DNA of 64,000 nt from Alphaproteobacteria bacterium (GCA_017962565.1 JAGCVC010000020.1:68622-132621), one strand, 5' to 3'; shown: positions 7,051 to 46,620, numbered from the stretch's first letter. Notes: generated by a model not told the origin, from the letters alone. A program made the numbers and translations.

Positions 7051-7827
7051 TTATTTTTTTGGCAAATGTCGTAATATCGGGTGAATTATACAAGCCGGCA
7101 GAGCACTCATCAACCAAGCACCCAAGGCCATTGGCAACGGAAAAGCAATAATTGCTTTATTTTTGGCAATACCTTTTTGAATAATTTTAGCGGCCTTTGC
7201 CGGTTGCATCAAAAACGGCATTCGGAAAGCATTTGCATCCGTCAGTGGCGTTTTAATAAAGCCCGGACAAATCACATTGACCTTGATATTTTCATCTTTC
7301 AACCAACCGCGCAAGCCTTCTCCCCACGCTTTGACGCATGATTTACTGGCAGAATATGCCGGTGCATAAGGCAATCCGCGATATCCGGCAATAGAGCTGA
7401 CAATAGCAACCTGCCCGCTTTTACGTTTACGCATCCTCTCCAAAGTCGGCAAAACGCAATTTACAACACCGGAAATGTTTGTATTGAAAATCTGTCGAGT
7501 CTGCGAACCGCCTTCCGGCTCGCCCAAAACACCACCCGATATACCGGCATTGGCAATCAGCAAATCAATCGGATGCACACTGTCCGCATTTAAAATTGCT
7601 TCCTGAACTGCAAAAGCATCCGTCACATCAAATTGGTAAGTATAAACTTCTGCGCCCTTTTCCTTACAAACAGCGGCTGTTTCGTACAAACGTTCTTTGT
7701 TGCGTCCGCATAAATACAAGCATTTATCGGGTGCGGCATAACTTTCTGCTAATGCTTTACCCAAACCGCTGGAAGCCCCTGTGATAAAGATGGAATACTT
7801 TTTCTTTTTCATTTCTTTTTTGTGCAT
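7051..7827 (-). CDS. short-chain dehydrogenase/reductase (SDR) family oxidoreductase
   Basis: ITGASSGLGKALA Rossmann motif and Y...K active-site region (YSASK). Track ORF extends to 7980, but that extension overlaps tRNA-Leu on the opposite strand. Start placed at internal ATG 7825-7827 (MHKKEMKKKKYSIFITGASSGLG). Confidence 0.75.
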   Translation of the reverse strand: MHKKEMKKKKYSIFITGASSGLGKALAESYAAPDKCLYLCGRNKERLYETAAVCKEKGAEVYTYQFDVTDAFAVQEAILNADSVHPIDLLIANAGISGGVLGEPEGGSQTRQIFNTNISGVVNCVLPTLERMRKRKSGQVAIVSSIAGYRGLPYAPAYSASKSCVKAWGEGLRGWLKDENIKVNVICPGFIKTPLTDANAFRMPFLMQPAKAAKIIQKGIAKNKAIIAFPLPMALGAWLMSALPACIIHPILRHLPKK

Positions 7828-7927
7828 TTTGCTGTTCCTTTTTAAAACTTCAAAAATTTTTAATTTTTTTCTTGACAATAAACAATATATCAATATAATA
7901 TGCTCTTGTCTACTGAAAAAAGCATGT

Positions 7928-8014
7928 GCCTCTGTGGCGGAATTGGTAGACGCGATAGACTCAAAATCTGTTGCTCGCAAGAGCGTGCTGGTTCAAGTCC
8001 GGCCAGGGGTACCA
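7928..8014 (+). tRNA. tRNA-Leu (anticodon CAA)
   Basis: Folded by hand. Acceptor stem GCCTCTG/CAGGGGT with G-U pairs, D-arm, anticodon loop CTCAAAA (CAA), long variable arm GCTCGCAAGAGCG typical of Leu. T-arm GCTGG-TTCAAGT-CCGGC, discriminator A, encoded CCA. Confidence 0.85.
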
Positions 8015-8061
8015 AATCTAACAACCGTTCCGATTGGGACGGTTTTTTATTGTTTTGCAAG
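8009..8061. repeat. att-like direct repeat copy 1: tRNA-Leu 3' end plus terminator
   Basis: 53 bp, GTACCAAATCTAACAACCGTTCCGATTGGGACGGTTTTTTATTGTTTTGCAAG. It recurs with 2 mismatches at 10180..10234. Confidence 0.8.
8021..8055 (+). terminator. rho-independent terminator of tRNA-Leu
   Basis: AACCGTTCC-GATT-GGGACGGTT 9-bp stem with tetraloop, followed by TTTTTATTGTTTT. Confidence 0.6.
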
Positions 8062-8272
8062 CATTTGAGCGAGTTCGATAACTCCCCCTTTTTAAAGGCG
8101 CCATTTCCGTAAATTATCGAACTTTTGGGATGCTGTTTCTTTATAAAACAATCACTTATAATGAGTTCAAGTCTGGCCAGCCCCAGAAACGAATTTTAAT
8201 TAATTTATTATTGACCAAGGAATCATAATTAAGTAGGATATATAAAAAGTACACAAATGTAGTGAGAAAGAA

Positions 8273-9112
8273 ATGACAAAAAGAAAATTATTTATTCCTG
8301 AAGGATATGAAGAAGATTATATCCGACACATACGACAAGAATCCAAGTACATACAAAGAAAATCACAGTTTGCAGAAGCAGAAATTCCACCTCTTGTTCC
8401 TAAATGGAAACCAACTCTAATGATGTATAATATAACAGATGAGATACAAGAAAAAAACAAACAAAGACATAGCCTTTATGACAAAATAGGTTTTTATGTG
8501 TTCCTTTTTATCTCTTTGATTATAATATATAAGGGACTATGTACAGCTAAAGGATTTTCATCTTTTATTGGAATTCTTTTACATAGAGCTTTCATTTGTT
8601 TAATTTTCGTTGGAGGACCTGTGGGTGCCATTCTATCCATTAAAACAGGTGTTGATAAACGTATTGAAAAATACAACAGACATTTAGAGGCATGGAAATA
8701 TTGGTATGAATTATATCCTCGGAAAAAAGTGATTTCTTATTGGAAAGATTTATCTGGATATAAGTTTGAAAAAGAACTTGCACAAATTTTTATTAAAAAT
8801 GGGTTTGATACTGAAATAACAAAAAAAAGTGGAGATGGTGGAGTAGACATTATACTCAATCCCAAAGGAGAAAAGATTTACATACAATGTAAAGCGTACA
8901 AAACACGTGCCGGTGTGGCTGTTGTCAGAGAGCTTTTAGGATGTATGGAATTAAACAATGTTGAATATGGTATCGTAGCCTGTACAGGAGGCTTTACGAA
9001 AGGAGCTATCGAAGCAGCACTAATGGCACACATTACTTTGTTGGATTCAAGCGATATTGTAAAGTTGATGGATAAAGACATACCATTGGATTATTTCTAT
9101 AGAAAAGAGTAA
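8273..9112 (+). CDS. membrane-anchored Mrr-family restriction endonuclease-like protein (Mrr_cat PD-(D/E)xK domain)
   Basis: 279 aa. N-terminal about 70 aa soluble region, two predicted TM helices (IGFYVFLFISLIIIYKGL; FIGILLHRAFICLIFVGGPVGAILSI). C-terminal domain has hallmark Mrr_cat motifs FEKELAQIF..., SGDGGVDII, IYIQCKAYK, GFTKGAIEAA. Confidence 0.75.
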   Translation: MTKRKLFIPEGYEEDYIRHIRQESKYIQRKSQFAEAEIPPLVPKWKPTLMMYNITDEIQEKNKQRHSLYDKIGFYVFLFISLIIIYKGLCTAKGFSSFIGILLHRAFICLIFVGGPVGAILSIKTGVDKRIEKYNRHLEAWKYWYELYPRKKVISYWKDLSGYKFEKELAQIFIKNGFDTEITKKSGDGGVDIILNPKGEKIYIQCKAYKTRAGVAVVRELLGCMELNNVEYGIVACTGGFTKGAIEAALMAHITLLDSSDIVKLMDKDIPLDYFYRKE

Positions 9113-9224
9113 CTTCTTTAATTCTTATTTTCTTGATTTTCTTGCCATAATATGATACAGTTCAGATATTAAAAATAGAAAAACATTTTCAAAATTTTAG
9201 TTAAAAAGAAATGAAGGATTTAAT

Positions 9225-10061
9225 ATGGCTAGTTATTCAGAATTAAATAGTAAATATTTCATAGATAATAAGGCATTTAATTGTCCCTTTTGTGGTTTAA
9301 GAAATACTACTTATACTATATTAGCAATTTTAAAGTATGATTTAAATAAAAACAAGTCTGCTAAAGTTATTTTTGTCCGCTGCAATAGATGTGGAAAAGT
9401 ATCCATTCATTTTGCTTCTTGTGATATACAAACTTCATGGGGAAAAGATGCACTTGGTGTTATCAAAGGTTTCAGTGGTTCTTCTGTGTGGATTAATACA
9501 TTGAATAATATCGATTTTTTAAATTCTAAAAATGATGATAGCGAATTTGATATCGATATAGATTCTAAAATATATCACAGTATTCCCTCTTCATCTTTTA
9601 CAATGGATGAACGAATCCCCAGGAATTTAAGAGATCTTTTTGATGAAGCTCAAGAATGCAAAAAAGCAAATTTAAAGACAGGAGCATCAGCTTGTTTAAG
9701 AAAATTAGTTTATACTTTGTTATCAGATCAGCTAAATAAAAAGCATAAAAAGACGAAGCAATCAATAAAAGATTTAGGCTACGAACATTATTCTGATTGT
9801 ATTAAAGCCTTAAAAGAATATCATCCTAATTTAAGCGTTTTTATCGCCCCTCTAGAAGGTATTACAGGTATAACTAGCGACCAAGTGCATGAAGATTCAT
9901 GGGCTGAAATATCATCACAAGATTTGGGCATTTGCTTAGAAGCTATGAGGGATTTATTAAACCAGATATATGTTCAACCTGCTATCTTGAAAGAAAGAGA
10001 AAACAAAATACGTGAAATGAGTAAGAAAGCATCCACTAAAAAAAAGAGTACGGATAAATAA
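9225..10061 (+). CDS. hypothetical protein with N-terminal Cys4 zinc ribbon and C-terminal DUF4145-like helical domain
   Basis: 278 aa. CPFCG...(26 aa)...CNRCG zinc-ribbon spacing. The C-terminal region (LFDEAQECKKANLKTGASACLRKLVYTLLSD ... GITSDQVHED ... EAMRDLLNQIY) resembles DUF4145 as I recall it, unverified. 112 bp downstream of the Mrr-like gene on the same strand. Confidence 0.5.
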   Translation: MASYSELNSKYFIDNKAFNCPFCGLRNTTYTILAILKYDLNKNKSAKVIFVRCNRCGKVSIHFASCDIQTSWGKDALGVIKGFSGSSVWINTLNNIDFLNSKNDDSEFDIDIDSKIYHSIPSSSFTMDERIPRNLRDLFDEAQECKKANLKTGASACLRKLVYTLLSDQLNKKHKKTKQSIKDLGYEHYSDCIKALKEYHPNLSVFIAPLEGITGITSDQVHEDSWAEISSQDLGICLEAMRDLLNQIYVQPAILKERENKIREMSKKASTKKKSTDK

Positions 10062-10097
10062 ACTTTCTCTCATAAAAAATTTAAAACAGGACCTCGA

Positions 10098-10125
10098 CGT
10101 CCTTAATTAAATCATTTATTTGCTG
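10098..10125 (+). terminator. possible weak terminator after 9225..10061
   Basis: AGGAC-CTCGAC-GTCCT short hairpin followed by an AT-rich tract. Weak. Confidence 0.3.
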
Positions 10126-10150
10126 TACCAACTTTTTGAAATCGTCCGGA

Positions 10151-10234
10151 TGTTTGGCTCGGTATTCGTTAAGCATGCTGTACCAAATTTAACAACCGTT
10201 CCGATTGGGACGGTTGTTTTATTGTTTTGCAAGG
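10151..10234. repeat. att-like direct repeat copy 2 (29-nt prefix plus 55-nt tRNA 3' end/terminator copy)
   Basis: 10180..10234 matches 8009..8061 with 2 mismatches and includes the terminator hairpin. The prefix TGTTTGGCTCGGTATTCGTTAAGCATGCT is shared with the copy at 10904. Confidence 0.8.
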
Positions 10235-10254
10235 TTGTTTTGAATAAAATTCTA

Positions 10255-10812
10255 TTATCTTCCGGAACGACAAAAGATTGCAACATTATGGAATAATTTA
10301 CACCCTCTGTGATTTTTCCCTAGATTTCTTATTTCTCCAATCGTTGTTTGAGAACCTTCCTTCATATTAAAAAGATCTAATGAAACATCCGGACAATCCA
10401 TGCATAAAATAGCAATTCCTTCTGCTGTTTCGGGATTACCATCTAAATCTAAATATAAATCGGCGTATCGATGAGATAATATTTGGGTTGGTTTAATAGG
10501 CAAATTTCCTACTTTTCCGCTGATAGATAAAGTTTCCTTAATAAGCATATTTGTGTACTTTTTACCACCACTACCGTACAAAGCATTTTTATCTGTAAAA
10601 TTACCTTCACCGCTTATAGAGCCTTTTGCATTAAAAGAAAATGGTGCGATTGATGTCCCATCAACTTCATCAGCTTTTATATACGTTTCTTTTTTGATAA
10701 TGCGAACAGAGGTATTATCTTTTCTTTCATCTACTTTTTCCCATGCGTTTACATTGAATAAAGCAGAAAAAATCGTCATTCCTAAAATCAATTGTTTTAA
10801 TTCTTTTTTCAT
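10255..10812 (-). CDS. hypothetical secreted protein (ORFan)
   Basis: Track ORF 10255..10929. Start moved to MKKELKQLILGMTIFSALFNVNA (signal-peptide-like) at 10810-10812 so the gene does not overlap the repeat at 10904-10950. Cys-rich C-terminus. No recognised family. Confidence 0.5.
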   Translation of the reverse strand: MKKELKQLILGMTIFSALFNVNAWEKVDERKDNTSVRIIKKETYIKADEVDGTSIAPFSFNAKGSISGEGNFTDKNALYGSGGKKYTNMLIKETLSISGKVGNLPIKPTQILSHRYADLYLDLDGNPETAEGIAILCMDCPDVSLDLFNMKEGSQTTIGEIRNLGKNHRGCKLFHNVAIFCRSGR

Positions 10813-10903
10813 CTTTAAACCTTCTTTTATGTGTTTCGAGAGCATCATTCTAGCATATTTTATTTTTTTGTCAAGATTTTTTACAAGTGTAAAGTATTCC
10901 GTG

Positions 10904-10950
10904 TGTTTGGCTCGGTATTCGCAAAGCACGCCGTACCAAATTTAACAACC
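10904..10950. repeat. att-like direct repeat copy 3
   Basis: TGTTTGGCTCGGTATTCGCAAAGCACGCCGTACCAAATTTAACAACC: 47 nt matching 10151..10197 with about 5 mismatches. Lacks the terminator-hairpin part. Confidence 0.7.
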
Positions 10951-16299: not shown

Positions 16300-18240
16300 T
16301 TAGTTCTTTTTGGCTTTATGAAATTCCAAAACCATCATTGTAATGTCATCCGATTGTGGAGCATCCTTCACAAAACGTTGTATATGCTTATGTACATTTG
16401 CCACCGTATCCGTCAAAGACATTTCTTTTTGGTTTAATGCTTTCTTCAACCGCTCTTTATCAAAGAATTTTTCATCAATGGTTTGTGCTTCCGGAATACC
16501 ATCCGTATAAAGGAACAATCTGTCATTTTTATTTAATTTAAATTTACCACCTTCGTATTTATAATCTGGTGAAACACACAAAAATAAATTTCGAATAACA
16601 GTGATATAATCATAACCGTCTTTTGTCTTATGTAAGGGTGGACAATGACCGGCACTGACATATTGGACTTGCCCTGTTGTCAAATCAAGAATACCAACAA
16701 ATGCCGTAACAAACATACCACGTGCATGGTTGTCGCAAAGCCCTCTATTCGCTCTATTCATGGCATCTTGCAATGGATATCCAGCTTGCAACATATTTTT
16801 GATAACCGTTTTTGCTGACATCATATACAATGCAGCCGTAATTCCTTTACCGGAAACATCAGCCATGACAAAGGCAAAATGATTTTCATCGACGGGGAAA
16901 AAGTCGTAAAAATCCCCTCCGACTTCTTTTGCTGGGGTCATGGAAGCAAACAATTCAAAATATTCATTTTTAGGAAAATCCTTTGGTAAAGCAGAATCTT
17001 GAATCGTATGTGCAATAGCCAATTCAGATTCCATTTTTTCTTTTTCACTGGAAACTTTTGCCAATTGTAACAGATGCGCTTTCATGTCCGTTTTCATTTT
17101 GTTGAAAGAAGAAGCCAATTGAGCCAATTCGGATGGCTTATCCAAATGAATTGTTTTTTCCAAATCCCCTTGGCTAATTTTTTGTGCTATTTCCGTTAGT
17201 TCAGAAATCGGTTGGTTAATGTTGCGCTTTAACACCCAATACAAAATTCCGACGATGATAAGCGTGCTAATTAAAAGAACACTAAGCAACACACATAAGT
17301 GATGAAGTGCAGCTTGGAAGAGTTCAAATAAAGGGACATTGACGATTAAAAATAATCCGTTGCCGAGTTGTTTGATGTAGGGGATATATTTTGTTCCGTT
17401 ATAATTAAAGGGTTGACCTTCTTTTAATTGCTTTGAATACCACTTAAGTGTTGATAAAGATTTTCCCATAATAGCATCGTTGTTAACGCCTTTTTCCGTC
17501 GTTGCAATGATATAATCGCTTGTCTTATCTGCAAAAAGAACAAAACTGTTTGGAGTTGGTTTGATTTTCAGAATGGATTTCAAAATTGTGTCCAATTCCC
17601 AATCAACCGTTGCCATTCCAACTAAATCCTTTTGATTATAAATACCGGCTCCAACTGTTGTCATAAGAATGCCAAGTTGAGTACTTCTGTAAGGTTTTGT
17701 CCAAGATACTTTTTGTCTTTTTTGTAAGTCGTTCAAAATTTCCGGATACCAATTTTGATCAAAATAATTGAAAGTGTTTGTAACACATGAAGGAAGCATG
17801 CTGATTTGATTGTCCTTTTCCCAAACAGCATGAATACAGGAAATCTTTCTATCATCGGATATTTCGTAGGGCTTAAAGTAAATGCCGTTTCCCATCGAAT
17901 TCGGATAATTTTTCAAAATTTGTTTGGTAAAAAATTCTCCGACATCTTGTTGTTTGCCTTTTTGAAAGTAAATTTCACCCATAACAGCCAAATCTTGCGC
18001 GTTTTTTTCAAGTGCTGCAATTTCGGTGTTCAATTGACCTTCAAATGCTGTAATGGCAGAATTATTTCCGGCAATTATCAGTTCTTTATCGTGGTAAAAA
18101 GCCATAATTGCAGCACCAGTAACTACAAGTCCCAACACAAGCAATAACGAAAGAGTTAAAATAACAATTTTTGATTTGATACTGTTCAGCATTTTATTTC
18201 CTTTTTCTTCGAATATAATACTTTCACTACTTCTTTTCAA
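16300..18240 (-). CDS. sensor protein-serine/threonine phosphatase: periplasmic sensor domain, HAMP, SpoIIE/PP2C (RsbU-like)
   Basis: 646 aa. N-terminal TM, about 280-aa extracytoplasmic region, second TM, HAMP-like linker (ISELTEIAQKISQGDLEKTIH). C-terminal PP2C/SpoIIE motifs (GGDFYDFF, FVMADVSGKGITAAL, LFLYTDGIPEA). Confidence 0.8.
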   Translation of the reverse strand: MKRSSESIIFEEKGNKMLNSIKSKIVILTLSLLLVLGLVVTGAAIMAFYHDKELIIAGNNSAITAFEGQLNTEIAALEKNAQDLAVMGEIYFQKGKQQDVGEFFTKQILKNYPNSMGNGIYFKPYEISDDRKISCIHAVWEKDNQISMLPSCVTNTFNYFDQNWYPEILNDLQKRQKVSWTKPYRSTQLGILMTTVGAGIYNQKDLVGMATVDWELDTILKSILKIKPTPNSFVLFADKTSDYIIATTEKGVNNDAIMGKSLSTLKWYSKQLKEGQPFNYNGTKYIPYIKQLGNGLFLIVNVPLFELFQAALHHLCVLLSVLLISTLIIVGILYWVLKRNINQPISELTEIAQKISQGDLEKTIHLDKPSELAQLASSFNKMKTDMKAHLLQLAKVSSEKEKMESELAIAHTIQDSALPKDFPKNEYFELFASMTPAKEVGGDFYDFFPVDENHFAFVMADVSGKGITAALYMMSAKTVIKNMLQAGYPLQDAMNRANRGLCDNHARGMFVTAFVGILDLTTGQVQYVSAGHCPPLHKTKDGYDYITVIRNLFLCVSPDYKYEGGKFKLNKNDRLFLYTDGIPEAQTIDEKFFDKERLKKALNQKEMSLTDTVANVHKHIQRFVKDAPQSDDITMMVLEFHKAKKN

Positions 18241-26920: not shown

Positions 26921-26962
26921 AAAAAAAAGAACGCTACCTTAATCGCAGTAACGTTCTTTAAT
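26921..26962 (-). terminator. rho-independent terminator downstream of 26980..27717
   Basis: Minus strand: AAAGAACG-(16-nt loop)-CGTTCTTT followed by TTTTTTTGTGC. Confidence 0.5.
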
Positions 26963-26979
26963 TGAAGATACAAAATACT

Positions 26980-27717
26980 TTATTCACCTTTTTGGATTTG
27001 TTTTGCTTCAGATAAAGCTTTTTCTTCCATTTGATTATTTGTACCTATTACACGAATACTGTTTTCCTTTGAAAGCGAATTCACGCCCAATGAAAAATAC
27101 TTTACGCATTCTTCGTATAATGCAGGACAAGCATCACGCAATGCTTCAACCATAATCATACGTGTTTTATAGTATTCTATATGCCATTCAGGAGGCTTTT
27201 TCGGATTTGGATTTTTATAAGAAACTTCAAAATTTTGCAATTTTTCAGCCAACAAAATAACTTTTGCCTGATGACTTAAGCCCATTGCCCATTTTGTTTT
27301 TTCTTGCCATTGCTGTTCTTTTGTCTGACTTTTATCTTCTTCCGGTTCTCCAGCTAACTCTTCGACAATGGAAGCAACTTCAGGAGAAAAATTATGCGCA
27401 ATTGCTCTCAGCACATCCTCTTTTGTGGCATTTTTTCTTGCCTCAATAGCTTTTTCATTTAACCTTTTTACCTCAAGTGCTTTGTACAAATAGGCTGTCA
27501 ACACTATTTGTTGTTTTTCTTCGACTTGCTGTTTATCTTCAACGTTAATATGGTAGAACGCACTTACTTTTTGGGCTGTTCCTTTAACTTGGGCAAACAT
27601 ACCCGATTCATCATCAGGGCCAGTGCATTTTTTACCACCGTAATCGACACCTTTATGCCAAAACTTAGCTGTATTCTCAGCCAGTGCGAGTTTTTCATTA
27701 AAAATTTTTTCTTCCAT
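26980..27717 (-). CDS. hypothetical protein (acidic, helical; no recognised domain)
   Basis: 245 aa ORF with its own terminator. No family recognised by eye. Confidence 0.5.
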   Translation of the reverse strand: MEEKIFNEKLALAENTAKFWHKGVDYGGKKCTGPDDESGMFAQVKGTAQKVSAFYHINVEDKQQVEEKQQIVLTAYLYKALEVKRLNEKAIEARKNATKEDVLRAIAHNFSPEVASIVEELAGEPEEDKSQTKEQQWQEKTKWAMGLSHQAKVILLAEKLQNFEVSYKNPNPKKPPEWHIEYYKTRMIMVEALRDACPALYEECVKYFSLGVNSLSKENSIRVIGTNNQMEEKALSEAKQIQKGE

Positions 27718-27762: not shown

Positions 27763-29052
27763 TTATTTATATTTGTCAATCTTTTTTAAAACGGCATAAT
27801 CTTTATCCGATAAAGAAACGTATAGTTCAATATCTTTATCCCCCTCTTGACAGGAAATAACTGCACCTTTTTCATAAAGCCATGCCAAAGTTTTACCATC
27901 ATGAAAAGGCAAATGGATAACATATGTCCTCTGATTTTCCGATAATGCTTTATCAATAAATAATAATAAATCTTCAATACCCTCACCCGTCTTGGCGCAA
28001 ACAGGCCAAACAAGTTCTTTATAACTGCTGATACGCGTCAAAGCTGTCCGTTCTTGTGGTGTTAACAAGTCAATTTTGTTTAAAACTTCCGGTAACCCTT
28101 TTGCAATTTTATCATTTAAACCTAAATCTTTTAAAACATTTTCAACATCTTGCTTTTGAGCCTCTGAATCCGAATGAGAACAATCCCTGACATGTAAAAT
28201 CAAATCTGCTTCCAAAACTTCTTCCAAAGTAGCTCTGAACGCGGCAATCAATTCTGTCGGTAGATCGGAAACAAAACCAACGGTATCCGATAAAATGACC
28301 TTTTTACCACTGGGCAATTCGATTTGCCTCATTGTCGGATCCAATGTGGCAAACAATAAATTTTCAGCAAACACATTTGCTTTTGTCAGTCGATTGAACA
28401 AAGTTGATTTTCCGGCATTGGTATAACCGACCAAAGACACAATCGGGAAAGGCACTTTTTTACGGCTTTTACGTTGTAAACCGCGTGTTTGCTTGACGTG
28501 TTCCAATTCCTTTTTAATGCGAACCAGCTTATCATCGATAATACGCCGGTCCATTTCAATTTGTGTTTCACCGGGTCCACCCAAAAAACCGGCACCACCA
28601 CGCTGTCTTTCCAAGTGCGTCCAAGAACGAACCAAACGAGAACGTTGATAAGTCAAATGAGCCAATTCAACCTGTAACACACCTTCTTTTGTTTGTGCTC
28701 GTTCACCAAAAATCTCCAAAATCAAGGCCGTTCTGTCAATAACCTTGACTTGCCATACTTTTTCCAAATTTCTCTGTTGAATAGGAGATAAAGCACAATT
28801 CATCAGTACCAATTCGGCACCTAACTCACATAACCGTAAATGCAAGCGTTCCGCGGCTCCTTTACCGATATATGTTGCAGGATGAATGTTTCGTAAAGGA
28901 ACTATCTCACTGCCAACGACATCCAAATCAATCGCTTTGGTCAAACTGATGGCTTCTGATAAACGCGCTTGTCCCGAACGCAGTGTTTTTTCTGTATTTT
29001 TTGAGTCAATTTCAATAATAAAAACTTTTGTTGGAATCTTTTTTTCAGACAA
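27763..29052 (-). CDS. hflX: GTPase HflX
   Basis: 429 aa. G-domain motifs GYTNAGKSTLFN, DTVGF, NKID. Directly downstream of hfq, overlapping by 8 nt. Confidence 0.9.
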   Translation of the reverse strand: MSEKKIPTKVFIIEIDSKNTEKTLRSGQARLSEAISLTKAIDLDVVGSEIVPLRNIHPATYIGKGAAERLHLRLCELGAELVLMNCALSPIQQRNLEKVWQVKVIDRTALILEIFGERAQTKEGVLQVELAHLTYQRSRLVRSWTHLERQRGGAGFLGGPGETQIEMDRRIIDDKLVRIKKELEHVKQTRGLQRKSRKKVPFPIVSLVGYTNAGKSTLFNRLTKANVFAENLLFATLDPTMRQIELPSGKKVILSDTVGFVSDLPTELIAAFRATLEEVLEADLILHVRDCSHSDSEAQKQDVENVLKDLGLNDKIAKGLPEVLNKIDLLTPQERTALTRISSYKELVWPVCAKTGEGIEDLLLFIDKALSENQRTYVIHLPFHDGKTLAWLYEKGAVISCQEGDKDIELYVSLSDKDYAVLKKIDKYK

Positions 29053-29263
29053 TATCGTCTTCCTTTAAATAAGTTCCCGCGGAAACACTGGATATAGCGT
29101 GTTTATAAATCAACTGTAAACGCCCCTCGTGTTCTAATAAAACAGTATTTTCATCCATCGACTTAATTGTTCCTTGCAATTTCACATTACAAGTCAAAAA
29201 AATCGTAACTGGTAATTTTTTTTCAAACAGCTTTTCCAAAAAGATCTTTTCTGTATTTTCCAT
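29045..29263 (-). CDS. hfq: RNA chaperone Hfq
   Basis: 72 aa. Sm motifs (VTIFLTCNVKLQGTIKSMDENTVLL; YKHAISSV). Confidence 0.85.
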   Translation of the reverse strand: MENTEKIFLEKLFEKKLPVTIFLTCNVKLQGTIKSMDENTVLLEHEGRLQLIYKHAISSVSAGTYLKEDDIV

Positions 29264-29278
29264 TTTCTATTCCTTAAA

Positions 29279-30646
29279 TTAAAAGAAAAACAAACCCGCC
29301 ACAAATAATTTTTCCACATTTTTAAATTGACCGGATGGAGCCAAAATTATCACACTATCCCCCACTTCAATTTTAAGATCGTCCTCTAATTTTATCAAAT
29401 GTCCTTTCCGAACGACCCCACAAACACGCATACCCTTCTTTTTCCGTAATTTTCCAATCGTATAATCGACAATTTTAGATGTTTCCAAAACCTCAAATGA
29501 CATTAAGTCACCCAATTGTTGTTTTAAAGAATAAATGGATTGAACTTGTCCCTTACGGATATGCTGTAAAATCGTAGACGTTGAAATAGTGTTTGGATTA
29601 ATAATTACATCGACACCCAAATGAGCCAGAACTTTATCATAAATTTGCTTATTTATCAAAGCAAACGTTCTTTTAACGCCACGTTGTTTTGTCAGCAATG
29701 ACAATAAAATATTGTCTTCATCTTCACCGGTTAAGGAAACAAATGCATCTGCATTATCAATATTAGCTTCTTGCAAAATATCCTCATCCATTGAATTGCC
29801 TTTGATAACAAGCGTCTGATTCAAACTTTTTGCCAAATAAACAGCTTGATCTTCGTCTTTTTCAATTAAGGAAAGGTGGTCTGCCATACCTTCTTCTTCC
29901 ATCAACTTTGCTAAACAATAACCAATACGTCCACCACCGGCAATAACAACGTGATCCGTTCTGTTTATTGGATGGCCCAAAGCTTCCAAAATTTTTTCAC
30001 AATGCTTGTTGTCAACAACAAAATAAACTTCATCCCCAACCCTAAGAGTTGTTTTTGAATCAATTGCCACAGATTGCCCGGAACGTACAATTCCGGCAAT
30101 ACAAGTTGTGTATTCTTCAAAATCTTTTTCTATTGAACCGATTGTTTTCTTTAAAAATTCGCATCCGCGCATACACTTTGCTCCGACAAAAACAGCATCC
30201 CCGGGCATATTTATAAATTCCAATGCTCCTGGTGTTTTTATGTTACGCAAAATTGTTTTTGCTGTTTCTCTTTCCGGATAAATAACCACATTTACATGTA
30301 AATCATCAAAGAAAGGCGGATATTTTTGATTGGAATAGAAACCCGAACGAATACGGGCAATACGAAGCGGAATATTAAACAAACAAGCAGCTTCAAAACA
30401 AATCATCATATTTACTTCATCACTGGGGGTCAGAGCAATAATTAAATCTGCATCAGCAGCACCTGCCTGTGATAAAACTTCCGGTGAAGAAGCAACACCG
30501 ACAACGGTTTGAAGATCCATCTCACTTTCCAGTTTTCTCAATGTTTCAGCATCTGTGTCAATGACAGACAATTGATGCCCTTCATGGAACAAATAAGAAA
30601 CGATACTATTACCGATATCCCCACAGCCACAAATAATGATGTTCAT
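29279..30646 (-). CDS. trkA: Trk system potassium uptake protein TrkA (two RCK/NAD-binding modules)
   Basis: 455 aa. MNIIICGCGDIGNSI and VVIAGGGRIGYCLA Rossmann motifs. Conserved position upstream of hfq. Confidence 0.85.
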   Translation of the reverse strand: MNIIICGCGDIGNSIVSYLFHEGHQLSVIDTDAETLRKLESEMDLQTVVGVASSPEVLSQAGAADADLIIALTPSDEVNMMICFEAACLFNIPLRIARIRSGFYSNQKYPPFFDDLHVNVVIYPERETAKTILRNIKTPGALEFINMPGDAVFVGAKCMRGCEFLKKTIGSIEKDFEEYTTCIAGIVRSGQSVAIDSKTTLRVGDEVYFVVDNKHCEKILEALGHPINRTDHVVIAGGGRIGYCLAKLMEEEGMADHLSLIEKDEDQAVYLAKSLNQTLVIKGNSMDEDILQEANIDNADAFVSLTGEDEDNILLSLLTKQRGVKRTFALINKQIYDKVLAHLGVDVIINPNTISTSTILQHIRKGQVQSIYSLKQQLGDLMSFEVLETSKIVDYTIGKLRKKKGMRVCGVVRKGHLIKLEDDLKIEVGDSVIILAPSGQFKNVEKLFVAGLFFF

Positions 30647-30888
30647 ATTTTATCCCCTTTTATTTTAAATTTTTTCATTTTTGAATATAACGTATTGCGG
30701 TTAATACCCAATAAGTTTGCCGCATGCAACTGATTACCCTTTGTTTTTTCCAAAGCAACTTTAACAGCGGATTTTTCTGCTAATCCGACAATTTTATCGT
30801 ACATTTTGTCCGGATGCTTTCGACTTTCAAAATAAGTCAAATACGCCCGTACATATTTATCCAAAATGTCCTCTATACTTACGCTCAA
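30643..30888 (-). CDS. Fis-family helix-turn-helix DNA-binding protein (stand-alone NtrC/NtrX-type C-terminal HTH)
   Basis: 81 aa. ...KTKGNQLHAANLLGINRNTLYSKMKKF matches the Fis/NtrC HTH_8 signature. Overlaps the dusB stop and the trkA start by 4 nt each. Confidence 0.6.
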   Translation of the reverse strand: MSVSIEDILDKYVRAYLTYFESRKHPDKMYDKIVGLAEKSAVKVALEKTKGNQLHAANLLGINRNTLYSKMKKFKIKGDKI

Positions 30889-31814
30889 TTTCCAAAAAAC
30901 TCCCGTATCAAAGCTTTTACATTTTCTGGTTTTGTTTCATTATAAACACTTTGTCTGAAATTAGCAACAAAAGAATGTCCACTTGCGTACCAAGCAAGAT
31001 GTTTTCTTGCAATAAACAACCCTTTTCTGCCATAATAAGAAAGTAATCTGTCAAAATGTTCCTGCACAATCGGTTCAATATCTGATGGTGGTTCTTGCCC
31101 ATCAATTTGCGCTAAAATCCAAGGCCGTCCCAAAGCTCCACGCCCAATCATCAATCCGTCTGCTAACGTCTGTTTTCGACAATTTTTCGCTGTCTGTTCA
31201 TCGACAATATCACCATTGGCAATTACGGGTATTGATAAAACTTGCTTAACTTCTGCGATTTTTGACCAATCTGCTTTACCGCTATAGCCGTCTGCTTTTG
31301 TTCTGGCATGAATTGTAACAGCATCTGCACCGGCCTGCTCCATGTATAAGGCAAATTCTTTTACATTGATATGTTCTTTATCCCACCCCAAGCGCATTTT
31401 AACTGTCACAGGAATTGAAACAGCTTTTTTAACGGCTTCCACAATTTCAGCAGCCAAAATCGGTGATTGCATCAACGCAGCTCCCGAAGTGTTGGAAATC
31501 AGTTTTCGAACGGGGCAACCCATATTGATATCAACCAAAAAAGCGCCATTTTGCTCTGCTTTTTTCGCGGCCATTGCCATGTGTTCGGGATTATTACCAA
31601 CCAATTGAATAGCTATCGGAGCTTTTTCATCAGATAAATCCATCATCCGTTCGGTTGTTTTTGAACCGTAAACATAAGAAGTTGCCGCAACCATTTCATC
31701 ATAAAGCAAATGCTTTCCGAATTGTCGCATCATTTGGCGGAAAGGCTTATCCGTCACACCAGCCATCGGCGCTAAAAAAACATTTGAAGAAAGTTTTGAA
31801 AGAAAATCACTCAT
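30885..31814 (-). CDS. dusB: tRNA-dihydrouridine synthase B
   Basis: 309 aa. LAPMAGVTD..., DINMGCP, ...KMRLGW motifs typical of DusB/NifR3. Confidence 0.85.
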   Translation of the reverse strand: MSDFLSKLSSNVFLAPMAGVTDKPFRQMMRQFGKHLLYDEMVAATSYVYGSKTTERMMDLSDEKAPIAIQLVGNNPEHMAMAAKKAEQNGAFLVDINMGCPVRKLISNTSGAALMQSPILAAEIVEAVKKAVSIPVTVKMRLGWDKEHINVKEFALYMEQAGADAVTIHARTKADGYSGKADWSKIAEVKQVLSIPVIANGDIVDEQTAKNCRKQTLADGLMIGRGALGRPWILAQIDGQEPPSDIEPIVQEHFDRLLSYYGRKGLFIARKHLAWYASGHSFVANFRQSVYNETKPENVKALIREFFGN

Positions 31815-32734
31815 TTGCGCGACCGTTTTTCATCCATGAAAGAATAGGCCTGATAAAGTGCTTCTTCTTGTTCTTCTTGGCTCATTTTTTCAAAAAAATC
31901 CTTAAGTTCCGGCGAAACAGTTGTCAAATCTGTTTCATTGGGGAACAAGTACGATAAGGAAACATATAACCAACTGGCAGCTTTAATCTTGCTGGAAGAA
32001 TCATCTTTTTTAGAATAAATTTCGTACAGTTTACGCTGGGCCGGGATATAATCATGCTGTGCGGCTTGCTCGTACCAGAACAAAGCCTTTTCCATATCTT
32101 TGTGAACTCCAAGTCCTTCCAAATAAAGATTCGCCAAAGAATACATTGCTTCCAAATGTCCTTGAGCTGCTGCTTTTTCGTACCAGATGGCTGCTTGTCC
32201 GTAATCCATTTGGATTTTTTTGCCTTCTGCATACAAACGTCCCAAGTCAAATTGACTTTGACTGTCTCCGAAAGTTGCCGTTTTTACAATCCACTGCATA
32301 TTCCATCTATCATCAATTGTTGGTGGACTGAGCATCTTGTATGCTGGTTGATTGCGTAAAATCTCCAATGCCTGAACAGCTTGCTTATCTCCCCGCAAAG
32401 CTGCTTTTTCATACCATTTTTCAGATTCCAACAAATCGGGCGGAACACCGGGCTTTCCATATTGATAAATATGCCCCAATGCAAACTGAGCTTCCAAAAC
32501 ACCCTGTCGTGCAGCTTTATAAAGCCATGAAACAATAACAGGATATTCTGTATCTTTTTGTTTTTCGTAAAATAAAGCCAATTGATATTGAGATTCCGCA
32601 TTTCCGCTTTCTGCGGCTTGATACAATTGCTTAAAAGCCTCATCATTTTGATTAAGCGGCAGCAAAACAGAAGCATTTACAGGTAATGCCATTCCCAAAA
32701 CGAATCCCATAAATATCAGTTGACTTTTACGCAT
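31811..32734 (-). CDS. secreted Sel1/TPR-like repeat protein
   Basis: 307 aa. Signal peptide followed by at least five Sel1 repeats ([31 protein letters not shown]; [30 protein letters not shown]; etc.). Confidence 0.75.
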
Positions 32735-32800
32735 ATTTCTTATACTTTCTTTCCTATCAGAAGCAATTATAACAGTTTTTTTAAAAAGGTTAAGAGAAAA

Positions 32801-34129
32801 ATGGATAAAAAAGCGCGTGTTATCGGAGCCGGTTTAGCCGGCAGTGAAGCGGCTTGGCAACTTGCAAAGTGCGGTTATCAAGTTGATTTATACGAAATGC
32901 GCCCTGTGAAGAATACACCGGCACACACAACGGATAAATGCGCTGAATTGGTTTGTTCCAATTCGCTACGCAGTGATGATTGGCAAACAAATGCTGTCGG
33001 TTTGCTTCATGAAGAATTACGCCGCTGCGGTTCTTTAATTATGAACTGCGCAGATGAAACACGTGTGCCAGCCGGTGGAGCATTGGCTGTGGATCGTGAA
33101 GCTTTTTCAAGTTTGGTAATGCAAAAATTGACTTTTCATCCTTTAATTACCATCCACAGAAAAGAAATAACCGATTTAGATGAACTGGATGACATCCCCA
33201 CCATTTTGGCAACCGGCCCTTTAACCAGTGAAAAAATGGCTGAAAATTTACAAAAAATAACCGGAGACGAACATTTACATTTCTTTGACGCGATTGCCCC
33301 GATTGTTTATACAGACAGTATTGATATGTCGCAAGCGTGGTATCAATCCCGCTATGACAAAGGCGACAAATATGATTATCTGAATTTGCCAATGAACAAA
33401 GAGCAGTACGAAAATTTTGTTGCAAATCTGTTGGCCGGTGAAAAAGTCGAATTTCATGATTGGGAAAAAGAAACACCCTATTTTGAAGGATGTTTGCCGA
33501 TTGAAGTGATGGCCGAACGCGGTCCTTTAACTTTGCGTTTTGGACCAATGAAACCGGTCGGATTGACCAACCCGCGTGATCCGAAAAATAAACCTTTTGC
33601 TGTTGTCTAATTACGTAAAGAAAATAAAGAAGGTACATTGATGAACCTGGTCGGTTTTCAAACGAAATTAAAATATAATGCGCAAAAAGAAATTTTTTCA
33701 AAAATACCGGGATTGGAAAATGCTTCATTTGCACGCATGGGCGGCATCCACCGTAATACTTTTGTTTGCGGCCCGAAAGTCTTAGATGAAAGATTGCATT
33801 TAAAAAATAAATCAAACGTTATCTTGGCCGGGCAAGTTTCCGGGTGCGAAGGTTATGTTGAAAGCACAGCTATGGGATTTTTGGCCGCACGATTGTTGGC
33901 AAATTCGGCATTGCCTTTGCCACCGGCCGAAACAGCTTTGGGCGCAATGCTAAGGCACGTCACGTCCGGCAACGTAGAAACTTTCCAACCGATGAACATC
34001 AACTTTGGCATCTTCCCCGAATTACCGAAAACAGGCGGACGAAAAATTAAAGGCGCAGACCGTAAAAAACTTTATTCCGACCGCGCCCTTTCCGCCCTTG
34101 ATAAGTGGATGAAGAATTTTATTTATTAA
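32801..34129 (+). pseudogene. trmFO: methylenetetrahydrofolate--tRNA-(uracil54-C5)-methyltransferase TrmFO interrupted by one in-frame TAA (33608-33610)
   Basis: Track ORFs 32720..33610 and 33638..34129 are in the same frame. Together they span a complete TrmFO (N-terminal [21 protein letters not shown] motif; C-terminal NLVGFQTKLKYNAQKEIFSKIPGLENASFARMGGIHRNTF). The only interruption is TAA at 33608-33610, at the position where TrmFO proteins have Gln in the conserved ...AVVQLR... segment. The frame reads AVV*LRKENKEGTLMNLVGFQT, so this is a CAA to TAA change, or a sequencing error. Confidence 0.75.
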
Positions 34130-45579: not shown

Positions 45580-46620
45580 TTATCTTCTCCGCATCAATCT
45601 TTGTGAACGTTTCGGACGGGGACGAGCTTTATCCTTATCAACAACACCTTCAAGAGGAGTAATCGGAGCAATTACATAATCGTCTTCTTCCGGTTTAATA
45701 GGAAGATCAACTTCTTTATTTGTTACACGTTTGTTCAATGTAACACCTTCCGATTTTGCCCTTGATATGTCAGAAGAACTCATCGAATCTGATAAAAGCT
45801 CAAGTGCTGAGTTAGCCTTATCAAAATTATTTTTAGCTGCTTCCGACATCCACGCATATGCCTGAATCTTATTAACTCCACCTTCAACCAAACCATCTGC
45901 ATACATAGTAGCTAGGTTGAACTGAGCCATAGGGAATCCCATCACAGCAGCATATTCATAAAAGGAACGAGCTTTCTCCATGTTCTGCTCAACACCAATA
46001 CCATTTTGATACATATGCCCTAACATATAGTGCGCTTCCACCGATTTTAACTGAGCTGCGCGTTTATAGTATGTAAAAGCTTTGGTTGCATTTTTTGCTA
46101 CACCATACCCATAAAAATATAAATTTCCCAAGTAAAACTGAAGAATCGGATGTTTTACACTTTCGATGGAATTCAACAACTCAAAAGCCTTTTCGTAATT
46201 TTGTGGAACGCCCTCTCCTCTGTAGTACAAAACACCCAAGTTCATAATCGCGGTTACATCAAATTCATCTGCAGATTGTTGGTAAAGTTCGAAGGCCTTT
46301 TGTCTGTTTCGTCTGACTCCTTTTCCTTCGTCATACATATATCCCAAAAAAGTCCTGGCTTCAGTATGACCCTGCTCTGCTGCAGCTTCAAATAAAGAAA
46401 AAGCTCTTTCATAACTCTGTGGACCACCCAAGCCGTGATAAAGCATAAAAGCAGTCAAATACTGACACTTTGCATCTTTTTCGAGCAAGCATCCCCTCAG
46501 CTCTGCTTCCGTTGTTGTATAATCGGCCTTCTGAAAAGCCTCCAACCCCTTGACATAATCAGCAAAACTTAACGAACTTATTGTAGAAAACAACAAAACA
46601 TAAAAAAACGTTTTCTTCAT
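45580..46620 (-). CDS. secreted Sel1-repeat protein with basic C-terminal tail
   Basis: 346 aa. Signal peptide. At least six Sel1 repeats (LGYMYDEGKGVRRNRQKAFELYQQSA; LGVLYYRGEGVPQNYEKAFELL; LGNLYFYGYGVAKNATKAFTYYKRAA; LGHMYQNGIGVEQNMEKARSFYEYAA...). C-terminus ...KARPRPKRSQRLMRRR. Confidence 0.75.
   Translation of the reverse strand: MKKTFFYVLLFSTISSLSFADYVKGLEAFQKADYTTTEAELRGCLLEKDAKCQYLTAFMLYHGLGGPQSYERAFSLFEAAAEQGHTEARTFLGYMYDEGKGVRRNRQKAFELYQQSADEFDVTAIMNLGVLYYRGEGVPQNYEKAFELLNSIESVKHPILQFYLGNLYFYGYGVAKNATKAFTYYKRAAQLKSVEAHYMLGHMYQNGIGVEQNMEKARSFYEYAAVMGFPMAQFNLATMYADGLVEGGVNKIQAYAWMSEAAKNNFDKANSALELLSDSMSSSDISRAKSEGVTLNKRVTNKEVDLPIKPEEDDYVIAPITPLEGVVDKDKARPRPKRSQRLMRRR

Follow-up and report, generated by a model that had tools for sequence, protein, structure and literature searches.

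A small Fis-like gene in the place of ntrBC and ntrYX between dusB and trkA of an alphaproteobacterial clade, probably a remnant of ntrC

Fis, an abundant, growth-phase-dependent homodimer that bends DNA, is among the most studied bacterial nucleoid proteins, and its beta-hairpin arm activates the Hin and Gin DNA invertases. In E. coli the gene for this protein of 98 amino acids (aa; NF001659; PDB 1ETY, 3IV5) lies directly after dusB and ends its operon, and the short, arm-less Fis-family regulators of Betaproteobacteria (NF002517/PRK01905, ~77 aa) are also encoded directly after dusB. Fis has been proposed to derive from alphaproteobacterial NtrC (Morett and Bork, 1998, as represented where it is cited in PMC7962754 and PMC11407668), and a literature search on the distribution of Fis in Alphaproteobacteria yielded little beyond citations of that work. 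Here we describe a 64-kilobase (kb) window of DNA from Alphaproteobacteria bacterium (GCA_017962565.1, JAGCVC010000020.1; positions are counted from the start of the window), in which an 81-aa gene of the Fis-type helix-turn-helix family (Pfam HTH_8) stands alone between dusB and trkA. On the combined evidence of gene order, homology, predicted fold, purifying selection and a series of related loci placed on a phylogenetic tree, this gene is probably the 3' end of ntrC, left in place after the rest of the ntr block was lost.

The same position is occupied very differently in other Alphaproteobacteria. Comparison loci were taken from a pattern scan of genome contigs with the family alignment, in which the best of the matches listed is 43% identical; 80 reference-genome loci among the matches listed served as NtrC and Fis comparators. 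In at least 40 alphaproteobacterial loci the small protein is best matched by the final ~75 residues of NtrC, encoded in the order dusB-ntrB-ntrC-ntrY-ntrX-(trkA)-hfq-hflX, and the alphaproteobacterial matches listed are C-termini of NtrC proteins of 460–490 aa in the context dusB-ntrB-ntrC-ntrY-ntrX-(trkA-trkH)-hfq-hflX. The classical groups represented are Sphingomonadales, Hyphomicrobiales, Rhodobacterales and Parvibaculum, and the gene order described for Rhizobiales agrees with this arrangement (PMC2848018). Compared with these loci, the small gene fills exactly the slot of ntrB-ntrC-ntrY-ntrX, as the original prediction, made from the window sequence, had proposed. The four two-component genes that it had reported missing between dusB and trkA are indeed absent: tblastn with the NtrB, NtrC, NtrY and NtrX proteins of locus L024 against the whole 64 kb gave a single match, the 81-aa open reading frame (ORF) itself (to NtrC residues 399–474, E = 2.8e-12), and these queries revealed no receiver or histidine-kinase protein in the window.

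Gene orders in related genomes form a series when arranged on a neighbor-joining tree of concatenated DusB, TrkA and HflX (1134 columns, 300 bootstraps). The nearest sampled outgroup, L102, carries the full block (dusB-ntrB-ntrC-ntrY-ntrX-trkA-HAD-hfq-hflX). From L039 inward (99% support) the block is replaced by the small gene: L039 reads dusB-small (102 aa)-trkA-HAD-hfq-hflX; L045 reads Sel1-dusB-small-trkA-hfq, having been viewed as far as hfq; and the window, L093, L095, L097, L099 and L007 share the order trmFO, then Sel1-dusB-small-trkA-hfq-hflX. The core clade is supported at 99.7%, and the core together with L045 and L093 at 100%. Given this branching order, the small gene arose before L039 split off. 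The core clade also holds L100 and L101, in which trmFO is followed by Sel1-dusB-trkA-hfq-hflX without the small gene; because both are nested within the clade that has it (their DusB proteins are 64–66% identical to that of the window), a secondary loss is implied. In L100 (8081–10371) dusB now joins trkA through an ATGA overlap, and in L101 (8021–10368) an 89-nucleotide (nt) spacer separates the two. At L098 (6972–9153) the small gene (78 aa, P0054) follows a DnaJ-domain gene rather than dusB (DnaJ-small-trkA-hfq-hflX), yet keeps its ATGA overlap with trkA, so that the link to trkA is the more persistent of the two. A widespread independent family in the clade, together with ntrBC and ntrYX elsewhere in the genome, was the outcome that the original prediction had set against its own proposal; the gene proved to be widespread in the clade, which only dates the event to the clade ancestor, and it did not prove to be independent of ntrC.

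That prediction had also left open whether the remnant came from ntrX or from ntrC, and here the comparisons separate the two. An origin from ntrX would be simple in one respect, since ntrX adjoins trkA in L102 and in the Rhodobacterales and Parvibaculum loci, and one deletion, beginning where ntrB begins and reaching the C-terminal domain of ntrX, would suffice. However, a hidden Markov model (HMM) of NtrX C-termini gives the family 17 bits, against 72 bits for the model of alphaproteobacterial NtrC C-termini. The window protein is 35% identical to L102 NtrC over 68 aa (residues 407–474, E = 2e-15) and 25% identical to L102 NtrX over 44 aa (E = 6e-4). By these scores the small protein does not have a C-terminal domain of the NtrX type (signature GNISRTA..GMERSALHRK). 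In loci carrying both genes, tblastn with the small proteins aligns to NtrC rather than to NtrX, and a Foldseek alignment with Brucella NtrX covers only 47 columns. An NtrX origin is effectively refuted by these sequence comparisons, and we reject it. Between the L039 small protein and L102 NtrC (residues 398–474) identity is 48% (E = 1e-21), with no match found to L102 NtrX. Flanking orthologues of the same two loci are 44% (DusB), 53% (TrkA), 46% (HAD) and 64% (HflX) identical, so the small protein and NtrC have diverged to the degree expected for vertical descent of the 3' end of ntrC.

The window protein matches Pfam HTH_8 (PF02954, Fis family) over residues 37–74 (51.2 bits, cut-off 22, E = 9.8e-14), and sub-threshold NCBIfam matches extend over nearly its whole length (residues 4–76). 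The best of these is PRK01905/NF002517 (45.3 bits, cut-off 122, profile positions 9–73 of 77). Fis (NF001659/PRK00430) scores 41.4 bits, below the equivalog cut-off of 99, with residues 6–76 on profile positions 28–97 of 98. Of NtrC (TIGR01818) only the last domain is present (profile positions 397–462 of 463, 40 bits, cut-off 558.6). An AlphaFold model (predicted local distance difference test score 81) has four helices at residues 5–20, 27–48, 53–60 and 64–73, and a Foldseek search of the PDB with it ranks Fis of E. coli and Pseudomonas first (template modeling score 0.72–0.80 over 73–77 columns). Residue 1 aligns with T23 of Fis, leaving only four residues before helix A of the model, and the family profile aligns with Fis residues 31–97 (E = 1e-12). 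As modeled, then, the small protein is a complete four-helix Fis core, or NtrC C-terminal domain, without the N-terminal arm of Fis; the earlier description of it as essentially only the helix-turn-helix does not hold. NCBI already labels two members of the family (MBE6450217.1 and MBQ4084449.1) as Fis family transcriptional regulators.

Fis and the window protein share the four-helix A–D core with its C-terminal helix-turn-helix. Conservation of the DNA-contact residues of helices C and D is partial. The residues aligned with Fis G72, N73, Q74, N84, R85, T87 and K91, which we take to be DNA-contact or turn residues of Fis-DNA structures, are identical in the window protein, and those at N73, Q74, N84, R85, T87 and K91 are invariant throughout the small-protein family; in place of Fis T75, R76, R89 and K90 the family has L, H, Y/H and S/T, respectively. 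The gene also follows dusB directly, through a TTGA overlap. In other respects the two differ. Overall identity is only ~26%; Fis Pro61 is Ser or Ala; and the N-terminal ~22 residues of Fis, including the beta-hairpin arm (Fis residues ~10–26), are missing. Unlike fis, moreover, the small gene does not end its operon and is followed by trkA-hfq-hflX with predicted translational coupling. With the C-terminal domain of alphaproteobacterial NtrC the small protein shares the slot after dusB and the domain boundary (directly after the AAA+ lid), and the alignment runs end to end (~398–474, 35–48% identity). The small protein is, however, a separate gene product without the receiver, sigma-54 AAA+ domain or partner kinase of NtrC, and thus without signal input or ATP-dependent activation.

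The small gene is real and under purifying selection. A database search returned 24 homologous protein clusters of 79–81 aa at 64–94% identity, all from metagenomes or metagenome-assembled genomes (MAGs) labeled Alphaproteobacteria. The family alignment is conserved from residue 1, and invariant positions include N52, Q53, N63, R64, N65, T66, L67 and K70. The ratio of nonsynonymous to synonymous substitution rates (dN/dS), calculated against L099 as the closest divergent locus (synonymous sites being saturated in the comparison with L007), is 0.039 for the small gene, the lowest in the cluster; neighboring genes range from 0.05 to 0.11, with the trmFO value set aside as unreliable because of an in-frame stop. 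The start codon of the small gene in the window is TTG, not ATG. In nine loci with guanine-plus-cytosine (GC) contents of 37–57% the start lies at the same aligned position, as ATG in seven and TTG in two, and a GGAG-like motif precedes it in most of them (clear in six); aligned starts, upstream motif and conserved N-terminus together support TTG as the true start. The ATGA junction with trkA is kept in all nine.

Several relatives of the protein depart from the compact form. Orthologues in sister lineages have variable extensions (L093 8001–8426; P0176–P0180; L039 3178–3486; L045 9980–10264). Forms of 141–149 aa carry ~50 extra N-terminal residues, and some end in strongly basic tails (KRRRKRK, RPRGRRRGL, KKKKRGTE), which may add non-specific DNA affinity. 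Many of the top matches in a search of representative proteins are ~190–205 aa long (P0028, P0029, P0031, P0032, P0035–P0037 and others) and contain two tandem Fis-like domains; in these the fold may take the form of a single-chain "pseudo-dimer". One apparent stand-alone gene, P0182 at L094, was rejected as a frameshifted full-length NtrC on an error-prone contig.

Stand-alone Fis-like genes next to dusB are also found outside this clade. A 94-aa HTH_8 protein of Desulfuromonadaceae, P0025, is encoded by a gene overlapping the end of dusB (L091/L092 4974–6285), and it is the reciprocal best match (62%) of a dusB-linked NtrC C-terminus in another Desulfuromonadales genome (L080 6684–10234). 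It shares with the window gene the form of a separate NtrC-C-terminus-like gene overlapping dusB; it differs in coming from another phylum-level lineage, in having dnaB on the opposite strand rather than trkA-hfq-hflX after it, and in sequence (43% identity between the two proteins). By sequence it looks like a parallel instance of the same truncation. E. coli Fis is itself closest, among the matches listed, to NtrC C-termini of Sphingomonadales (48–51% identity). Both matches fit the published proposal that Fis arose from NtrC, and they suggest that a stand-alone Fis-like gene was born more than once. Going further, we put forward tentatively, as possible though short of probable, that stand-alone Fis-like proteins have arisen repeatedly at the dusB-ntrB-ntrC junction, that the clade described here is an independent and comparatively recent repeat, and that the freed domain, expressed together with trkA, hfq and hflX, acquired a new global or architectural function that depends on no signal.

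Other histories have to be weighed against descent from ntrC. A dusB-linked Fis-like gene might be the older state, with ntrBC and ntrYX never having been at this site. Small HTH_8 genes linked to dusB do occur in Betaproteobacteria and Desulfuromonadaceae as well as in the window clade, and stand-alone Fis-like proteins are common (10,493 matches at E ≤ 1e-3, most of the best 150 being 75–130 aa long). We nevertheless think this unlikely: L102 and all classical Alphaproteobacteria sampled carry the full ntr block at the site, and the small proteins of Desulfuromonadales and of the window clade are each nearest to dusB-linked NtrC C-termini of related genomes, so that repeated truncation fits better than one old stand-alone gene. 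Transfer of a beta- or gammaproteobacterial dusB-fis pair, or of fis alone, displacing the ntr genes, is in our estimate rather improbable. Betaproteobacterial dusB is followed by an arm-less Fis-family gene of the same size class (78–87 aa), the best NCBIfam match is of this betaproteobacterial type, and identity to betaproteobacterial Fis (~37%) is about that to alphaproteobacterial NtrC C-termini (35%). The betaproteobacterial match lies below its cut-off, the genes downstream differ, and the signature reads GNQL in the small protein, as in NtrC, and GNQT in the betaproteobacterial regulators. Against transfer, DusB of these lineages does not group with betaproteobacterial DusB (0 of 200 bootstraps), both flanks are alphaproteobacterial in order, and L039 shares the HAD gene with L102. 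In a tree of the ~75-column domain the nearest neighbors of the small proteins, after their own group, are NtrC C-termini, with beta/gamma Fis absent from the top eight, and the L039–L102 identity matches the vertical divergence of the flanks. Finally, complete loss in two nested lineages (L100 and L101) might mark the ORF as a non-functional leftover of ntrC on its way out; that it should be so is very improbable in view of the dN/dS value, the length held at 79–81 aa over all 24 clusters, the invariant helix-turn-helix residues, and the conservation of start position, upstream motif and ATGA junction across 37–57% GC.

Descent from ntrC remains well supported, and several observations nonetheless weigh against it. 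Two deletions are needed, because the retained domain sits between the lost parts, and no half-way locus such as dusB-small-ntrY-ntrX was found among the loci compared; these loci were picked by similarity to the query and are biased accordingly. The gene is dispensable in some close relatives, L100 and L101. HMM scores for beta/gamma Fis (66 bits), non-alphaproteobacterial NtrC (82) and other small proteins (87) are similar to that for alphaproteobacterial NtrC, so the comparison with NtrX, NtrC and Fis that the original prediction had called for clearly excludes NtrX and does not separate NtrC C-termini from the Fis type. The domain tree lacks resolution at depth: all alphaproteobacterial small proteins come out as monophyletic in 5% of bootstraps, and no supported node joins them with alphaproteobacterial NtrC. 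A tree of DusB by itself, which is not decisive, places these lineages outside the classical alphaproteobacterial clade.

If the gene does descend from the 3' end of ntrC, the clade ancestor would have had dusB-ntrB-ntrC-ntrY-ntrX-trkA, and deletions would have removed all of ntrB, ntrY and ntrX and, from ntrC, the parts for the receiver and the sigma-54 AAA+ domain. What was retained would be the four-helix dimerization and DNA-binding domain of NtrC as a separate gene between dusB and trkA. A sigma-70-type promoter upstream of Sel1 would probably drive this gene together with Sel1, dusB, trkA, hfq and hflX, and translation of the small gene would probably be coupled to dusB through TTGA and to trkA through ATGA. 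The DNA-binding domains of Fis and of NtrC-type proteins have been described as a four-helix dimerization assembly (PMC11407668); the small protein would likewise dimerize through helices A and B, with two helix-turn-helix units (helices C and D) facing the DNA. Having no receiver or ATPase domain, it cannot be phosphorylated at a receiver or remodel sigma-54 polymerase. Its role would then be limited to that of a signal-independent DNA-binding or architectural protein, or a repressor, which binds, bends or occludes DNA, and by analogy we infer a short, arm-less counterpart of Fis.

Among the known Fis/NtrC C-terminal-domain proteins this one is a new member specific to its lineage, and its interest lies mainly in the evolutionary series. 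The same outcome as in the origin of Fis is seen within the Alphaproteobacteria, at the original dusB-ntrBC site, and the states before (L102), after (L039, L045, the window) and lost again (L100, L101) are all extant in related genomes. With a second parallel in Desulfuromonadales, a one-off historical inference becomes a pattern that can be compared across lineages, and these proteins are on offer for studying how a signal-dependent enhancer-binding domain turns into a free DNA-binding protein. The series also flags an uncultured alphaproteobacterial clade that may have dropped NtrBC/NtrYX signaling. Practical importance is modest, the family being already annotated as Fis-like.

Features of the gene run are listed in Table 1. 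The genes form a compact run on the minus strand, Sel1, dusB, the 81-aa HTH_8 gene, trkA, hfq and hflX, which from dusB onward is present as first described. From Sel1 to hflX the spacing comprises three 4-nt overlaps, a 15-nt gap between trkA and hfq, and an 8-nt overlap between hfq and hflX. The 4-nt overlaps of the small gene with dusB and trkA, also claimed at the outset, can both be read in the sequence. Family assignment is firm for DusB, TrkA, Hfq and HflX, all of which score above the curated NCBIfam cut-offs, and the hflX start is the same in the gene call of L001. Sel1 also lies upstream of dusB in L001, L007, L045, L093, L095, L097, L099, L100 and L101.

Table 1. Genes, junctions and candidate expression signals of the dusB-trkA-hflX run, in window coordinates.
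Feature	Position	Strand	Evidence
Sel1-repeat protein, first gene of the run	31811–32734	-	Pfam Sel1, E 2.4e-28
dusB (tRNA dihydrouridine synthase B, nifR3)	30885–31814	-	TIGR00737 351.8 bits, cut-off 293; Pfam Dus E 4.4e-96
81-aa stand-alone Fis-like/NtrC C-terminal-domain gene, TTG start	30643–30888	-	Pfam HTH_8
trkA (Trk K+ transport, NAD-binding subunit)	29279–30646	-	NF007031 438 bits, cut-off 289
hfq	29045–29263	-	TIGR02383 70.3 bits, cut-off 61.7
hflX	27763–29052	-	TIGR03156 436 bits, cut-off 217
TTGA junction: dusB stop TGA overlaps TTG start of the small gene	30885–30888	-	Sequence aaTTGAgc
ATGA junction: small-gene stop overlaps trkA start	30643–30646	-	Sequence atATGAac
Promoter-like site TTAACC-16 nt-TGtTATAAT in the trmFO/Sel1 spacer, candidate operon promoter	32766–32793	-	Consensus 10/12, extended -10
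Terminator-like hairpin, 13-bp stem then T run	26926–26959	-	Consensus scan only

Shuffled sequence contains at least as many promoter-like and terminator-like sites as this region. The one site strengthened by conservation among relatives is that upstream of Sel1: both hexamers and the T5-6A6 tract of the spacer are conserved in the window, L099, L007 and L095, and this promoter probably drives the run. The palindromic T5-6A6 tract itself (~32772–32787, minus strand) is flanked by the -35-like and extended -10-like elements; it may serve as a binding site, for instance in autoregulation, or be no more than A/T-rich spacing. Downstream, the terminator-like hairpin follows a 245-aa ORF (26980–27717), and the transcription unit may end there.

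The first description of the locus had also pictured a streamlined, host-restricted lineage, and this is not established. Among the products encoded in the window are the glycolytic enzymes enolase and triose-phosphate isomerase, a KDO8P/DAHP-type synthase, a sulfatase, a HAMP-SpoIIE sensor phosphatase, an Mla transporter and amino-acid-binding proteins of the Peripla_BP type. The sources of relatives are mixed, comprising the MAG UMGS1574 and others from the INTA.CYC series, which comes from dairy wastewater ponds (PMC8929167). The nearest named relatives of the window TrkA are from Rhodospirillales (38–41% identity).

Elsewhere in the window, trmFO (32801–34129, plus strand) has an in-frame TAA at 33608–33610 where L001, a contig otherwise 99.98% identical, has CAA (Gln); this is either a nonsense single-nucleotide polymorphism in the genome or an assembly error. 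A tRNA-Leu(CAA) at 7928–8014, which runs into the 5' end of an SDR gene as called by its longest ORF (7051–7980), is followed by an Mrr-type restriction endonuclease gene (8273–9112) and two ORFs without a Pfam match; GC content falls as low as 31.5% in the region 7928–10929, possibly a small tRNA-adjacent island. The sensor phosphatase (PDC-HAMP-SpoIIE) is encoded at 16300–18240, and a second Sel1-repeat protein, with five repeats (E = 1.3e-50), at 45580–46620.

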